From IMG/VR virus record IMGVR_UViG_2657245006_000001: a DNA stretch of 11,651 bases, one strand, 5' to 3'. The notes beneath the pieces are model-generated. The model ran no database searches, had not been told where the DNA came from, and was given only the letters and a program-made list of their open reading frames with translations. Below are positions 2,328 through 10,821 of the stretch, in pieces (within the stretch, counting starts at the first letter, position 1; each line of letters starts with the position of its first letter). The stretch is from a virus (taxonomy: Duplodnaviria; Heunggongvirae; Uroviricota; Caudoviricetes). A program made the position numbers and the translations under genes.

Positions 2328-2644
2328 TCATTGCCTTATCTGGGAATCTGTAATCAGGTTTCCGGATGCTGGTGGATTTTCGCGTTTTAGTTGTTCATAA
2401 AAGTGCACAGCTTTAACCAGTTCTTCTGATGTAACCGGGACTGGCGGGGCAGTGAATAAGGCCTGAATTTCATAGTTCGGCCTGTCGTTACAATCCTCTT
2501 TTTTCGGTACATATTTCCAGTCACCAGACCACTACTTCCCCTGAAAGTCCGTAACGCCTTTTTTTTCACGTAGCGATATCGCCATGCCACTGTTTTTGCT
2601 TGCCCCGCCGTTTCATGCCCTTCCTGATAATTAACCTCGCTCAT
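2328..2644 (-). pseudogene. Disrupted small gene: reading frame breaks between an A8 and an A6 tract
   Basis: Frame 1 from the ATG at 2644 gives the 85-aa track ORF with odd basic composition. A different frame gives a protein-like tail (...EIQALFTAPPVPVTSEELVKAVHFYEQLKRENPPASGNLITDSQIRQ) running to a TGA at 2328-2330, past the frame-1 stop. That frame contains an in-frame TAG (2532-2534) and an upstream ATG at 2585. The A8 run is plus T8 at 2559-2566. Confidence 0.3.
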
Positions 2645-2817
2645 TCATCGCCCCACTCATCACAATATGCTTCGACCGGAGTTTTTCCTGCTTCATAATC
2701 ATCACGCCATGCTTCAGCATCAGCAGCACTGCCACCACGTAACTCTGCATAGTCCATTAACAGTTCATGCCATTCTTCAAAACTGACGTTGTATTTAGTT
2801 GAACCAAAATCAGCCAT
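2641..2817 (-). CDS. Small acidic protein, 58 aa
   Basis: Hand translation gives MADFGSTKYNVSFEEWHELLMDYAELRGGSAADAEAWRDDYEAGKTPVEAYCDEWGDE. Its ATG overlaps the stop of the upstream 60-aa gene by 8 nt (ATGGCTGA), and its TGA overlaps the next ATG (ATGA). Not in the ORF track because it is under 60 aa. Confidence 0.5.
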   Translation of the reverse strand: MADFGSTKYNVSFEEWHELLMDYAELRGGSAADAEAWRDDYEAGKTPVEAYCDEWGDE

Positions 2818-2992
2818 TTTGTTCTTCCTCTTCGTCTTTTATTTCGTGATATGAGTAATTGCAGTAGTTAAAGAAAATATCTTTTGCTTCGTCATGTATT
2901 TCATCAGGCGTCGCATCATCATCCACTTCGAATTCATCCTCGAAATCTCCACCGGCTATTCCCGTTTCAATAATTATTTTAAACTTTCGCAT
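2810..2992 (-). CDS. Small highly acidic protein, 60 aa
   Basis: ATG at 2992..2990; product MRKFKIIIETGIAGGDFEDEFEVDDDATPDEIHDEAKDIFFNYCNYSYHEIKDEEEEQNG with a very acidic C-terminal half. Preceded on the mRNA by GGAGG, then a hairpin, then 7 nt. Confidence 0.55.
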   Translation of the reverse strand: MRKFKIIIETGIAGGDFEDEFEVDDDATPDEIHDEAKDIFFNYCNYSYHEIKDEEEEQNG

Positions 2993-2999
2993 TTAACTA

Positions 3000-3015
3000 C
3001 CGCCCTTTCGGGCGG
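3000..3015 (-). promoter_or_regulatory. GNRA-tetraloop hairpin between the Shine-Dalgarno and start codon of the 60-aa gene
   Basis: Minus-strand RNA reads GGAGG (3020..3016), then CCGCCC-GAAA-GGGCGG (3015..3000), then UAGUUAA, then AUG (2992). The loop is GAAA only on the minus-strand transcript (UUUC on the other strand). No U-tract follows, so it is not a terminator. Confidence 0.4.
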
Positions 3016-3085
3016 CCTCCTGATGTTCTGAGGGTGCAGAAATCCCTCCGGTTAAGGATTAAATTTTTAACAGAGCTAAATTTAA

Positions 3086-3442
3086 TTATTCAGTTCTGGA
3101 TTTTGTCGCCCTGCGTATCCGCGCTTTCGCGTTACGCTCAATCTGAATTAGCTTTTCTATATTTTTTCGCCTTTCCCGCTCCTCCTGACGCAAGAGCCTT
3201 ACATCATCTGCCAGTCTGGTTTCTCTTTTCGCCACAGAGAGCATCCAGTCAAATGGCTCCACAACTGCACCGCAGATTTTACAGCGGACCTGACGCTCTT
3301 TTTCGTCAACCCGGACAGAGGCGTGATGACAATATGGTCTTTCCGATGGCTCATAAAGAAAATTAACCTGATTACGAGGGTCATCCTCTTTTACCGGAAA
3401 TAAAACGATATTGCTTAACTCATCCTCTGGTTTTATTTCCAT
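3086..3442 (-). CDS. Hypothetical protein, 118 aa, Cys/His cluster and basic coiled-coil-like C-terminus
   Basis: Preferred start is the ATG at 3442..3440 with AGGAG 6 nt upstream (MEIKPEDELSN...). The track ORF extends to a GTG at 3499 directly after the upstream stop, a possible alternative. Motif YCHH...RCKICG, then an RE/K-rich tail. Confidence 0.55.
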   Translation of the reverse strand: MEIKPEDELSNIVLFPVKEDDPRNQVNFLYEPSERPYCHHASVRVDEKERQVRCKICGAVVEPFDWMLSVAKRETRLADDVRLLRQEERERRKNIEKLIQIERNAKARIRRATKSRTE

Positions 3443-5848: not shown

Positions 5849-6487
5849 ATGAGCAAGCAAACTATATCTGAACGCATAACCCAACGTATGCATGCGCTAA
5901 ACCTGAAAGGCAAAGACCTTGTCAATGGCACTGGCGCATCAAAAGGCTCCGTAAGTCAATGGATGAACGGTGGAGGAGCGCCGTCCTCGCGTTACATAAG
6001 TTCACTGGCAAAAATATTGAAAGTAAACGAAAATTGGCTTCTTAATGGAGGAGAGTTAAATACAGGTGATTCGCTTGATCTATCTTTACCGCCGATAAAA
6101 ACGGTTCCGCTACTATCACTTCAGCAGGCAGCAAGCTGGAGTGATTATATGAAAAATTCCTCAATAACCTCTTGTGTGCAGCTTGTCGGAGAAATCCCGG
6201 TCAATACCTTTGCAGTTGTTCTAGAGAGTGACAGTATGTCAACATCTGGTGGGGGAGTTTCCATCCCAAATGGTTCAACAGTTTTTGTTGATCCCGATCG
6301 AACCGTACAACCAGGAAATATTGTCCTTGCCTTACCCAAAGGGACCACAACACCTGTCATTCGTAAACTGGAGATAGAAGGGCCGGATATTCTTTTAGTC
6401 CCCACGAATCCTCGCTACCCTTCAATTATGCTGGATGATCTATCTTGCATATTGGGCGTATGCTTTAAAATTCAACAAGATATTTAA
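5849..6487 (+). CDS. cI: CI-like prophage repressor, 212 aa: N-terminal XRE-type HTH plus C-terminal S24 (LexA-like) autopeptidase domain
   Basis: ATG at 5849, TAA at 6485-6487. N-terminal HTH (ISERITQRMHALNLKGKDLVNGTGASKGSVSQWMNG). C-terminal domain has the Ser nucleophile context ESDSM and a downstream Lys (VIRKLEIEG), as in LexA and lambda CI. Confidence 0.85.
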   Translation: MSKQTISERITQRMHALNLKGKDLVNGTGASKGSVSQWMNGGGAPSSRYISSLAKILKVNENWLLNGGELNTGDSLDLSLPPIKTVPLLSLQQAASWSDYMKNSSITSCVQLVGEIPVNTFAVVLESDSMSTSGGGVSIPNGSTVFVDPDRTVQPGNIVLALPKGTTTPVIRKLEIEGPDILLVPTNPRYPSIMLDDLSCILGVCFKIQQDI

Positions 6488-7094: not shown

Positions 7095-7313
7095 ATGCAG
7101 AAACGAGAACCCGTCATCATCGCGCCAGACTATACCGATGATGAACTTTATGAGTGGATGCGCCAGAAAATTAATGCAGCGCAGGATCTGAAATGGGCCA
7201 ATGAAGCCAGGGCTAAGCAGGCTGAAAATCTGTCCGCTCTGGAGCAGGATATCACCAATCTGGAAAAAGCAGCGGCATTAAGCATTGCCAGAATGATTAC
7301 ATACCCGCGTTAA
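7095..7313 (+). CDS. Hypothetical protein, 72 aa, probably helical
   Basis: ATG at 7095 with GAGG 7 nt upstream; TAA at 7311-7313. No recognisable family. Confidence 0.6.
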   Translation: MQKREPVIIAPDYTDDELYEWMRQKINAAQDLKWANEARAKQAENLSALEQDITNLEKAAALSIARMITYPR

Positions 7314-7668
7314 TAGCTAACCAACGAAGCTAAGGTTGGTAATTAAGGAGTTCTCCACGGGTGAGGTGGAGTGCGTGCGCCGGACACGGGTGAGCATCCG
7401 GCACTGACAGTTTACTGAAAGGATATTTCCCTGAAAAGTCAGACCATAACGCGAAAGCGCACGGCGAGGTAGCTGGTTCATAGATAGCCTGTCGTTAAAT
7501 TTTCGTCGACCGTGCGCTTCCGGTTGTGGCAACCCGCGAAATGGTGCGGCGGTAAGTATGGCGGGGTTATTTCTTCCCCGTTGAGGACACCGGGTTGTCA
7601 GGTTGACCATACGCTTAAGTGACAACCCCGCTGCAACGCCCTCTGTTATCAATTTTCTGGTGACGTTT
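7314..7668 (+). other. GC-rich structured non-coding block with no ORF (candidate structured RNA, regulatory element or gene remnant)
   Basis: All three plus frames are full of stops; the only minus ORF (7317..7652) starts at a non-ATG codon and is Arg-rich. Perfect stems: 7455-7464 with 7510-7519 (10 bp), 7592-7600 with 7620-7628 (9 bp), 7379-7384 with 7397-7402, 7320-7325 with 7335-7340. CACGGGTGAG repeated at 7356 and 7385. A sampled line hand-counts to about 60% GC. Confidence 0.3.
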
Positions 7669-7711
7669 GGCGGTATCAGTTTTACTCCGTGACTGCTCTG
7701 CCGCCCTTTTT
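7669..7711 (+). terminator. Candidate intrinsic terminator at the end of the structured block
   Basis: GGCGG (7669-7673) pairs with CCGCC (7701-7705); an imperfect inner stem extends the hairpin; T-run at 7707-7711 follows. A U-tract exists only for the plus strand. Confidence 0.4.
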
Positions 7712-7880
7712 AAAGTGAATTTTGTGATGTGGTGAATGCGGCTGAGCGCACGCGGAACAGTTAAAACCAAAAACAGTGTTATGGGTGGATTCTCTGTATC
7801 CGGCGTTAATTGTTAACTGGTTAACGTCACCTGGAGGCACCAGGCACTGCATCACAAAATTCATTGTTGAGGACGCGATA

Positions 7881-8069
7881 ATGAAAACGTTATTACCAAA
7901 CGTTAATACGTCTGAAGGTTGTTTTGAAATTGGTGTCACTATCAGTAACCCAGTATTTACTGAAGATGCCATTAACAAGAGAAAACAAGAACGGGAGCTA
8001 TTAAATAAAATATGCATTGTTTCAATGCTGGCTCGTTTACGTCTGATGCCAAAAGGATGTGCACAATGA
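7881..8069 (+). CDS. Small hypothetical protein, 62 aa
   Basis: ATG at 7881 with GAGGA 7 nt upstream; its stop overlaps the next ATG (ATGA at 8066-8069). Product MKTLLPNVNTSEGCFEIGVTISNPVFTEDAINKRKQERELLNKICIVSMLARLRLMPKGCAQ. Confidence 0.5.
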   Translation: MKTLLPNVNTSEGCFEIGVTISNPVFTEDAINKRKQERELLNKICIVSMLARLRLMPKGCAQ

Positions 8070-8257: not shown

Positions 8258-8349
8258 AACAGTTCCGTAATAAATATCCGGTTTCATTCTTATATGCCAG
8301 CAATGGCAGGGATTTGTTCATCCTTAAATCTGTCATGAGGTTAAAACAA

Positions 8350-10821
8350 ATGAGTAAAGTCTTTATTTGCGCCGCTATTCCTGACGAACTGGCAACAAGG
8401 GAAGAAGGCGCTGTGGCTGTAGCCACAGCCATTGAAGCTGGCGACGAACGCCGTGCTCGAGCAAAATTTCACTGGCAATTCCTGGAACATTATCCGGCTG
8501 CTCAGGACTGCGCTTATAAATTTATTGTCTGCGAGGATAAACCTGGCATACCCCGCCCTGCCCTCGATTCATGGGATGCTGAATATATGCAGGAAAACCG
8601 CTGGGATGAGGAGTCTGCTTCTTTTGTCCCGGTTGAGACTGAATCCGATCCGATGAACGTCACTTTTGACAAGCTGGCCCCTGAAGTACAGAACGCTGTC
8701 ATGGTTAAGTTCGACACATGTGAAAACATCACCGTTGATATGGTTATTAGCGCACAGGAATTGTTGCAGGAAGACATGGCAACATTCGACGGACATATCG
8801 TTGAAGCGTTGATGAAAATGCCAGAAGTTAACGCCATGTATCCGGAGCTTAAGTTGCACGCCATTGGGTGGGTTAAGCATAAATGTATTCCTGGTGCTAA
8901 ATGGCCCGAAATTCAGGCAGAGATGCGCATCTGGAAAAAACGTCGCGAAGGTGAACGCAAGGAAACCGGAAAATACACGTCTGTTGTTGATCTCGCCCGC
9001 GCCAGAGCCAATCAACAGTACACTGAAAATTCAACAGGAAAAATCAGCCCGGTCATTGCTGCCATTCATCGCGAATACAAGCAGACATGGAAAACACTGG
9101 ATGACGAACTGGCCTACGCTCTCTGGCCTGGTGATGTGGATGCCGGAAACATTGACGGCAGCATCCATCGCTGGGCAAAAAATGAAGTTATCGACAACGA
9201 CCGCGAAGACTGGAAGCGTATCTCGGCATCAATGCGCAAACAGCCTGATGCCCTTCGCTACGACCGCCAAACTATTTTTGGCCTTGTCCGTGAGCGTCCG
9301 ATCGACATTCACAAAGATCCCGTAGCACTGAACAAATATATCTGCGAATACCTGACGACAAAGGGCGTGTTTGAGAATGAAGAAACAGACCTGGGCACTG
9401 TTGATGTTCTCCAGTCATCAGAAACACAAACTGATGCAGTGGAAACTGAGGTATCTGATATCCCAAAAAATGAAACCGCGCCGGAAGCTGAACCATCTGT
9501 AGAGCGTGAGGGGCCGTTCTATTTCCTCTTCGCAGATAAGGACGGAGAAAAATACGGTCGCGCAAACAAACTTTCTGGTCTGGATAAGGCACTGGCTGCT
9601 GGCGCCACTGAAATCACAAAAGAAGAATATTTTGCCCGAAAAAATGGCACATACACGGGCTTACCGCAAAATGTAGATACCGCTGAAGATTCAGAACAAC
9701 CAGAGCCGATAAAAGTTACCGCTGACGAAGTAAACAAAATTATGCAGGCAGCCAATATCATCCAGCCTGACGCCGATAAGTTGCTTGCTGCATCACGTGG
9801 TGAATTTGTTGAAGGGATTAGTGACCCGAATGATCCGAAATGGGTTAAGGGGATCCAGACCCGCGATTCTGTGAACCAGAACCAGCATGAATCGGAACGG
9901 AACTACCAAAAAGCGGAACAAAACAGCCCAAATGCGTTACAAAACGAGCCAGAAACGAAACAGCCTGAATCAGTGGCGCAACAGGAAGTGGAAAAAGTCT
10001 GCACCGCCTGCGGTCAGACCGGCGGCGGCAACTGCCCTGATTGTGGCGCGGTAATGGGCGACGCAACATACCAGGAAACATTCGATGAAGAGTATCAGAT
10101 TGAAGTTCAGGAAGATGATCCGGAGGAAATGGAAGGCGCTGAACATCCACACAAGGAGAACACTGGCGGCAATCAGCATCACGATAGCGATAATGAAACT
10201 GGCGAGACGGCAGATCACTCAATTAAGGTGAACGGTCATCAAGAAATCACATCCACCAGCAGGACGTGTGACCATCTAATGATCGACCTTGAAACCATGG
10301 GAAAAAATCCTGATGCCCCGATCATCTCAATAGGTGCAATATTTTTCGATCCGCAAACCGGAGATATGGGACCGGAATTTAGTAAGACTATCGATCTGGA
10401 AACTGCTGGCGGAGTCATTGATCGGGACACCATTAAATGGTGGCTTAAGCAATCACGCGAAGCGCAATCTGCCATTATGACCGATGAAATCCCGTTAGAT
10501 GATGCACTGTTACAATTGTGGGAATTTATCGACGAAAACTCCGGTGAATTTTTTGTTCAGGTCTGGGGAAATGGAGCCAACTTCGACAACACGATTTTGC
10601 GCCGTTCATACGAACGGCAGGGGATCCCCTGCCCGTGGCGTTACTACAACGATCGCGATGTACGCACAATCGTTGAGCTGGGGAAAGCCATAGACTTCGA
10701 TGCCAGAACGGCTATTCCATTCGAAGGTGAGCGCCATAATGCACTTGATGACGCCCGTTACCAGGCAAAATACGTTTCAGTTATCTGGCAAAAACTGATC
10801 CCGAGTCAGGCTGATTCTTAA
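8350..10821 (+). CDS. Large early-left protein, about 823 aa: long N-terminal region of unknown function, acidic linker, C4 zinc ribbon, C-terminal DEDDh 3'-5' exonuclease domain
   Basis: Preferred ATG at 8350 with GAGG upstream (the track ORF starts at a TTG at 8314); TAA at 10819-10821. C-terminal roughly 190 aa (from about 10264) carries DEDDh motifs: MIDLET, WGNGANFD, HNALDDA. Zinc ribbon CTACGQTGGGNCPDCG near 10000-10046. Possibly related to proteins annotated as exodeoxyribonuclease VIII in prophages (recalled, unverified). Confidence 0.8.
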   Translation: MSKVFICAAIPDELATREEGAVAVATAIEAGDERRARAKFHWQFLEHYPAAQDCAYKFIVCEDKPGIPRPALDSWDAEYMQENRWDEESASFVPVETESDPMNVTFDKLAPEVQNAVMVKFDTCENITVDMVISAQELLQEDMATFDGHIVEALMKMPEVNAMYPELKLHAIGWVKHKCIPGAKWPEIQAEMRIWKKRREGERKETGKYTSVVDLARARANQQYTENSTGKISPVIAAIHREYKQTWKTLDDELAYALWPGDVDAGNIDGSIHRWAKNEVIDNDREDWKRISASMRKQPDALRYDRQTIFGLVRERPIDIHKDPVALNKYICEYLTTKGVFENEETDLGTVDVLQSSETQTDAVETEVSDIPKNETAPEAEPSVEREGPFYFLFADKDGEKYGRANKLSGLDKALAAGATEITKEEYFARKNGTYTGLPQNVDTAEDSEQPEPIKVTADEVNKIMQAANIIQPDADKLLAASRGEFVEGISDPNDPKWVKGIQTRDSVNQNQHESERNYQKAEQNSPNALQNEPETKQPESVAQQEVEKVCTACGQTGGGNCPDCGAVMGDATYQETFDEEYQIEVQEDDPEEMEGAEHPHKENTGGNQHHDSDNETGETADHSIKVNGHQEITSTSRTCDHLMIDLETMGKNPDAPIISIGAIFFDPQTGDMGPEFSKTIDLETAGGVIDRDTIKWWLKQSREAQSAIMTDEIPLDDALLQLWEFIDENSGEFFVQVWGNGANFDNTILRRSYERQGIPCPWRYYNDRDVRTIVELGKAIDFDARTAIPFEGERHNALDDARYQAKYVSVIWQKLIPSQADS

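Follow-up and report, generated by a model that had tools for sequence, protein, structure and literature searches.

DicF and its untranslated precursor in the ydfC–dicB interval of a probable Qin-like lambdoid prophage

The window analysed here, an 11,651-nucleotide stretch of Caudoviricetes DNA (IMG/VR record IMGVR_UViG_2657245006_000001), contains a block at positions 7314–7711 that is very probably the untranslated ydfC–dicB part of the dicBF operon, a PL-type operon of a Qin-like lambdoid prophage of Escherichia coli. Three segments follow one another along the plus strand: a variable junction directly after ydfC (7314–7444), a conserved leader (7445–7654) and the Hfq-dependent small RNA (sRNA) DicF (7655–7707) with its intrinsic terminator. 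DicF is a prophage sRNA that regulates cell division and metabolism. The initial annotation, made from the letters of the window, described the block as a structured non-coding sequence that could not be placed in any RNA family; this ‘unassignable’ block is the long-known DicF together with its untranslated precursor and has already been described. The part of the block outside DicF corresponds to the published ‘long untranslated region containing dicF’ (PMC5069750).

The assignment comes from an Rfam scan, in which positions 7655–7706 match the DicF family (RF00039) over its full length (model positions 1–52 of 52), with 76.7 bits against a gathering score of 48 and an E-value of 6.6e-16; the statement that no RNA family could be assigned is thereby overturned for the 3′ 52 nucleotides of the block. 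The 53 nucleotides at 7655–7707 (+) are identical, at 53 of 53 positions, to E. coli K-12 dicF (b1574; 2883–2935 of the K-12 locus, L001), including the 5′ and 3′ target-pairing regions, and the record of phage Tritos labels the same feature ‘DicF antisense sRNA’. Judged by its letters, the identity of DicF is secure, the sequence being that of the characterised gene. The terminator noticed earlier at the 3′ end of the block is DicF’s own intrinsic terminator: a hairpin at 7669–7705, whose 12 pairs are kept across 83 variants, is followed by the U-tract TTTTT at 7707–7711 (+), in line with the published descriptions (PMC5069750, PMC9438474).

Synteny which, like this identity and the conservation pattern described below, was observed directly in the present analysis, leads to the same locus. 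The gene order is ydfA–ydfB–ydfC, a 341-nucleotide spacer, dicF, dicB and ydfD. Coding sequence 5′ of the untranslated stretch ends with ydfC (7095–7313, +), a 72-residue ORF that carries this name in E. coli genomes and in K-12; after the block comes the cell-division inhibitor gene dicB (7881–8069, +), whose product matches Pfam PF05358 with 136.8 bits over model positions 1–62 of 62. Pfam searches with the flanking ORFs also return YdfA (DUF1391) and YdfD (DUF1482), in the K-12 order. Downstream of ydfD lies a gene for an 835-residue exonuclease (8314–10821, +), and upstream of the operon are a divergent LexA-like cI repressor and a P22-type Cro. DicF has ydfC on one side and dicB on the other, within a prophage operon of PL type under repressor control, on which Pfam and the annotations of K-12 and Tritos agree. 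The gene order and the strong DicB match define a Qin-type dicBF locus and not a Rac/sieB locus; the initial annotation had noted that the block sits where Rac-type phages carry sieB-like exclusion genes. In the dicBF region of the cryptic K-12 prophage Qin, which is ~98% identical and has the same order ydfA–ydfB–ydfC–dicF–dicB–ydfD, the ydfC–dicF spacer is 340 nucleotides long, as opposed to 341 in the window. Of 5426 complete E. coli genomes, 4383 contain the stretch, in every case under a ydfC/dicB annotation, with a median of two copies per genome and up to nine places; ~30 sequenced phages carry it as well.

The structural elements initially reported for the block are present in its sequence as described. 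A perfect 10-bp stem pairs 7455–7464 (aagcgcacgg) with 7510–7519 (ccgtgcgctt), a 9-bp stem pairs 7592–7600 (gggttgtca) with 7620–7628 (tgacaaccc), and two 6-bp stems join 7379–7384 (gccgga) to 7397–7402 (tccggc) and 7320–7325 (accaac) to 7335–7340 (gttggt). The alternative pairing of 7562–7568 (cggggtt) with 7624–7630 (aaccccg) is equally present, and the repeated decamer CACGGGTGAG occurs in exactly two copies, at 7356 and 7385. The composition had been overestimated: the computed GC content of 7314–7711 is 52.8% (48% for the whole window), not ~60%. On the plus strand, fold z-scores are −2.69 for 7314–7654, with one of 100 shuffles as good, and −2.71 for 7445–7711, with three of 200 shuffles as good; the opposite strand of 7314–7654 scores −4.21, stronger than the plus strand. 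Taken as a whole, the predicted structure of the block exceeds chance only modestly. RNAalifold returned near-equal and oddly scaled energies for the two strands, and for this reason its energies were not used for strand choice and assignment of the strand by structure was left aside. As a separate observation, an antisense transcript across 7314–7654 and dicF is possible, a weak sigma-70-like site (TTAACA-16-GAGAAT) lying on the minus strand at 7789–7816.

The variable junction (7314–7444, +) contains the decamer and four small hairpins, at 7320–7340, 7352–7372, 7379–7402 and 7404–7443, and is crossed by homology breakpoints among 131 loci that carry the DicF core. In this comparative set, upstream homology to the window stops at 7235 (where ydfC is present), 7334, 7356, 7374 or 7426–7445, and the last four of these breakpoints run through the junction hairpins. 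PPompW/Stx2a phages have a two-gene insert at 7333/7334, and different cassettes stand here in other prophages, among them a family of proteins of 116–216 residues starting MEFKDLP together with reverse-strand ORFs; the zone is also represented by 2565–3218 of locus L003. The zone directly after ydfC is thus an insertion hot-spot for gene cassettes, which is one modest addition to what has been published on the locus. No function is given to the junction hairpins or to the decamer, because the breakpoints cut the hairpins and neither K-12 nor phage Tritos conserves the decamer.

Since the upstream breakpoints are discrete, the last 210–220 nucleotides directly 5′ of DicF are kept in 130 of the 131 loci, whichever gene lies upstream, with 87–100% identity to the leader of the window (7445–7654, +), which forms the 5′ extension of the DicF precursor. 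The sole exception is a Salmonella copy that has only the DicF core in common. A scan of contigs with a 20-base DicF core returned eight loci, among which only the Salmonella one is divergent, and because this locus has nothing in common with the window 5′ of DicF, the scan yielded no distant leader homologues. Among 83 distinct variants the leader measures 206–214 nucleotides, and its variation sits mainly in loops. Entropy is 0.053 in leader columns predicted to be paired, equal to that of DicF itself, versus 0.333 in unpaired columns, a contrast biased by the prediction of the structure from the same alignment. That DicF is inherited together with a leader of ~210–220 nucleotides (206–214 across variants), as one module, is a second modest addition.

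Four hairpins are predicted in the leader and at its border with DicF, all on the plus strand. HP1 (7452–7522) is a long hairpin that contains the 10-bp stem, which is kept in 31 of 31 sequence variants; its apical ~35 nucleotides have been swapped for unrelated sequences, in at least eight versions, while the basal stem is kept. HP2 (7560–7582; GGCGGGG/CCCCGTT) shows one-nucleotide indels in its loop and is replaced in four variants by the non-homologous CTGGGG...CTCCAG, which again forms a hairpin in this position. HP3 (7592–7628), formed by the 9-bp stem, is nearly invariant, with some G-C to G-U changes and one unrepaired A·C mismatch in nine variants. The last hairpin (7644–7665) joins UGUUAUCA to UGGUGACG, its loop AUU|UUC holding the 5′ end of DicF, so that the 5′ seed of the sRNA (7658–7665) is paired with the leader (7644–7651); all eight pairs are kept, and each of 13 one-sided changes preserves pairing. 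Covariation of the stems, a check that the initial annotation had suggested, is absent: in the alignment of 83 distinct leader-plus-DicF sequences, none of 51 pairs is changed on both sides and no leader helix has a compensatory change, in an alignment whose stems hardly vary, with 99.4% of cells paired and shuffle controls equal to the observed values. Because compensatory changes are nil, the leader helices are predictions argued for by thermodynamics and by conservation of the stem sequences. We judge the initial proposal of a structured RNA to be sound, the block being a real, non-coding and structured region.

The RNA species, nucleases and targets of this locus have been established by others, for a K-12 DicF identical in sequence to the one described here. 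DicF has an RNase E-generated 5′ end (PMC5069750; bioRxiv 10.1101/2023.04.14.536235) and two alternative 3′ ends (PMC5069750; reviewed in PMC9438474): the terminator yields the 53-nucleotide form, and cleavage of the full-length mRNA by RNase III yields a 72-nucleotide form (PMC5069750). Ragunathan et al. described a 190-nucleotide species beside the 53-nucleotide one; the 5′ end of the former is RNase III-dependent, with cleavage at 813/814 and no internal promoter, it accumulates in stationary phase, and the bands seen in K-12 are ydfABC and ydfABC-dicF, with no longer species (bioRxiv 10.1101/2023.04.14.536235). A promoter scan found no sigma-70-like promoter on the plus strand within 7314–7654, the same simple scan having also missed K-12 dicBp.

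These published figures can be projected onto the window, the cleavage positions being derived from RNA lengths, the 813/814 figure and a promoter read from the sequence, and not from mapped ends. By arithmetic, the 190-nucleotide species begins at 7707 − 190 + 1 = 7518. The K-12 promoter, read by eye as TTGACC-17-TAATCT, places +1 near position 1938 of the K-12 locus (L001), and +813/814 then corresponds to window position ~7522. Both estimates fall within 7518–7523, the 3′ base of HP1; because two independent calculations land there, HP1 (7452–7522) is probably the duplex that RNase III cuts to set the 5′ end of the 190-nucleotide species. The 3′ end of the 72-nucleotide form, at 7655 + 72 − 1 = 7726, falls midway along the 5′ arm of a long-range duplex of 21 bp (7714–7734/7845–7865), which closes the dicF–dicB spacer (7714–7865, +; fold z-score −4.31) and whose pairs are kept in 62 variants with alternation of U·G and C-G and of G·U and G-C. 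This duplex is the probable RNase III site for the 72-nucleotide 3′ end. That both published RNase III-dependent ends fall on specific conserved helices is a further modest addition.

Together, these elements suggest the following course. The operon transcript would start at the repressor-controlled promoter upstream of ydfA, and most transcripts would end at the DicF terminator. RNase III would cut the leader duplex, presumably HP1, to release the 190-nucleotide species, and RNase E would then cut the AU-rich loop at 7654/7655 to produce the 53-nucleotide DicF, a repressor of ftsZ, xylR, pykA and manX. In read-through transcripts, an RNase III cut just past the terminator, presumably in the duplex 7714–7734/7845–7865, would produce the 72-nucleotide DicF. 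From the predicted pairing at 7644–7665 we infer that the precursor would mask the 5′ seed of DicF.

The dicF–dicB spacer also contains, at 7718–7858, a partial, sub-threshold match to STnc100 (RF02076), with 34.1 bits versus a gathering score of 47 and an E-value of 1e-5. STnc100 is a prophage-associated RNA (bioRxiv 10.64898/2026.05.13.724894). The match covers model positions 21–154 of 206 and lies outside 7314–7711, and membership of the STnc100/PasD group is not claimed; the spacer may be a diverged relative of these prophage RNAs or simply a structured 5′ UTR of dicB.

The same architecture exists around another sRNA in phiSTEC1589, an N-type Stx1c phage, where HP1 is followed by an sRNA with its terminator, the same long-range duplex and a division-inhibitor gene (1801–2260 of locus L132). 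This phage keeps the equivalent of window positions 7334–7531, including HP1, and is without 7532–7612, so that HP2 and HP3 are deleted. Its DicF-like RNA (2009–2059 of L132) scores 35.6 bits, under the DicF gathering score, has a different 5′ seed and carries a 12-bp terminator stem that is fully compensated; the division-inhibitor gene downstream is also different, and the operon has an annotated N protein. Since phiSTEC1589 has the same architecture around a different DicF-like RNA, the architecture is older than the particular sRNA, and the phiSTEC1589 RNA may be a DicF paralogue with other targets.

Alternative readings of the spacer concern its coding capacity, its distribution and the role of the leader. 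The earlier statement that the block has no credible ORF on either strand holds in so far as nothing there codes for protein; it has to be amended for the minus strand, where an uninterrupted frame of 111 codons with a TTG start spans 7317–7652. Gene callers mark parts of this frame in RefSeq genomes and phage records, and RefSeq calls its last 54 codons (7317–7481, −) the hypothetical protein WP_001331716.1. The spacer could then be a decayed gene, as the initial annotation had considered, or a real small gene such as the minus-strand ORF or its WP_001331716.1 part, and we regard either as highly improbable. The predicted product is Arg-rich, oddly composed and without a Pfam match; the length polymorphism of the leader does not follow a three-nucleotide step; only ~33 of 83 variants keep the frame whole, and in ~50 of 83 it is broken; and the mosaic breakpoints cut through it. 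At 27 variable sites in near-identical copies, seven changes are synonymous, 18 non-synonymous and two nonsense, and third codon positions are not favoured. A decayed gene fails on these indels and substitutions, and the substitution pattern indicates that WP_001331716.1 is a spurious gene call. The suggestion of a dispersed enterobacterial repeat of the REP, ERIC or BIME type draws on the hairpins and on the many copies, at up to nine places per genome, and can for practical purposes be dismissed: it fails because all copies stand in the ydfC–dicB context of lambdoid prophages, with the median of two matching the number of prophages, and the window holds no tandem or dispersed copy elsewhere.

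Two further readings give the leader an activity of its own. The 137-nucleotide extension of the 190-nucleotide species could be a functional RNA domain, acting as a seed-masking pro-sRNA until the RNase E cut, serving as a sponge or additional regulator, or influencing how the RNA is processed or how stable it is, which we hold to be possible but unlikely. Such a role would suit the association of the leader with DicF irrespective of the upstream gene, stem columns as invariant as the sRNA, the substitution of HP2 by an unrelated hairpin, the pairing of the seed with exclusively pairing-preserving changes and the build-up of the 190-nucleotide species in stationary phase. Against this, covariation is absent, the entropy contrast is biased, phiSTEC1589 has a DicF-like RNA in spite of the deletion of 7532–7612, the Salmonella copy has the core only, and the conservation of the leader could reflect recent spread of one module. 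A related proposition, that the extension (~7518–7654) is an RNA domain in its own right, for example a pro-sRNA switch that would hold the seed used for xylR and pykA pairing in a helix until RNase E cuts, or an element that would set termination at DicF versus read-through into dicB and the recombination genes, is likewise possible but unlikely. Far less probable is cis-acting antitermination, put-like or classical, by which the leader would suppress the DicF terminator and allow expression of dicB, the exonuclease gene, xis and int without N. As noted initially, no N-like protein is visible: Pfam finds none among the operon ORFs. The minimum free energy fold of 7445–7711 moreover contains a 25-bp pairing (7538–7567/7684–7711) that displaces the terminator hairpin and is 5 kcal/mol more stable (−100.1 versus −95.0 kcal/mol), and the heptamer GGCGGTA of the terminator’s 5′ arm recurs in the leader. 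However, 112 of 1000 dinucleotide shuffles match this duplex, among natural variants it is more often disrupted than retained, and it is missing from the HP2-replacement variants and from phiSTEC1589, which is without the leader arm. BoxA-like matches are at chance (four found versus 4.5 expected), with none between the promoter and DicF; a decamer search for a nut or put signal returned nothing above chance; and in K-12 no transcript extends beyond ydfABC-dicF. HK022 put and the lambda and P22 nut sites likewise lie in the early-left operon, upstream of a terminator and in hairpin-rich RNA, but here the rightward operon contains no paired copy, and boxA, an N-like gene, a family match and a conserved anti-terminator pairing are all missing; Rfam reports no family except DicF inside 7314–7711 at E ≤ 10; the put-like element proposed initially is not borne out by these comparisons. 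An exact 14-mer, TAACGCGAAAGCGC, does occur once per early operon in transcribed orientation, at 7447–7460 (+) and 3121–3134 (−), and is the only other match to the block in the window; the pair is probably due to chance and not nut-like, because the second copy is inside a coding region (codons ...ERNAKARI...).

The reading of the block as DicF with its untranslated precursor also has parallels among other Hfq sRNAs. SroC (from gltIJKL), CpxQ and SdhX are 3′ UTR-derived or intra-operonic Hfq sRNAs released by RNase E, and resemble DicF in having an early intrinsic terminator within or after the mRNA and an RNase E-made 5′ end (PMC9438474). Unlike them, DicF lies more than 340 nucleotides past the stop codon, occurs in RNase III-dependent 190- and 72-nucleotide forms and has coding genes downstream. 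In the RefSeq genomes inspected, except K-12, ydfC and dicB are listed and dicF is not, and some list the spurious antisense ORF; dicF is missing from RefSeq and from most phage annotations of the locus, which is why a textbook sRNA appeared unassignable. This is a caution for genome scanning and not a discovery. The roles of DicF and DicB in controlling cell division, sugar metabolism, EHEC virulence and phage resistance are all published.

The prophage that carries the block is less decayed than its K-12 counterpart. Its repressor (5849–6487, +) is a 212-residue protein with HTH and Peptidase_S24 domains, LexA-like and presumably SOS-cleavable, whereas K-12 Qin has the 135-residue DicA; YdfA is longer than in Qin; and the exonuclease gene is intact at 835 residues, where Qin has the ydfE pseudogene and IS2. 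With a LexA-like repressor and an intact exonuclease, this prophage may therefore be inducible. Elsewhere in the window, a full-length match to the sok antitoxin RNA (RF01794, 106.7 bits) at 1717–1888 (−) adjoins a 51-residue ORF at 1564–1719 (−), presumably a Hok-type toxin, and the two look like a hok/sok module within the prophage.
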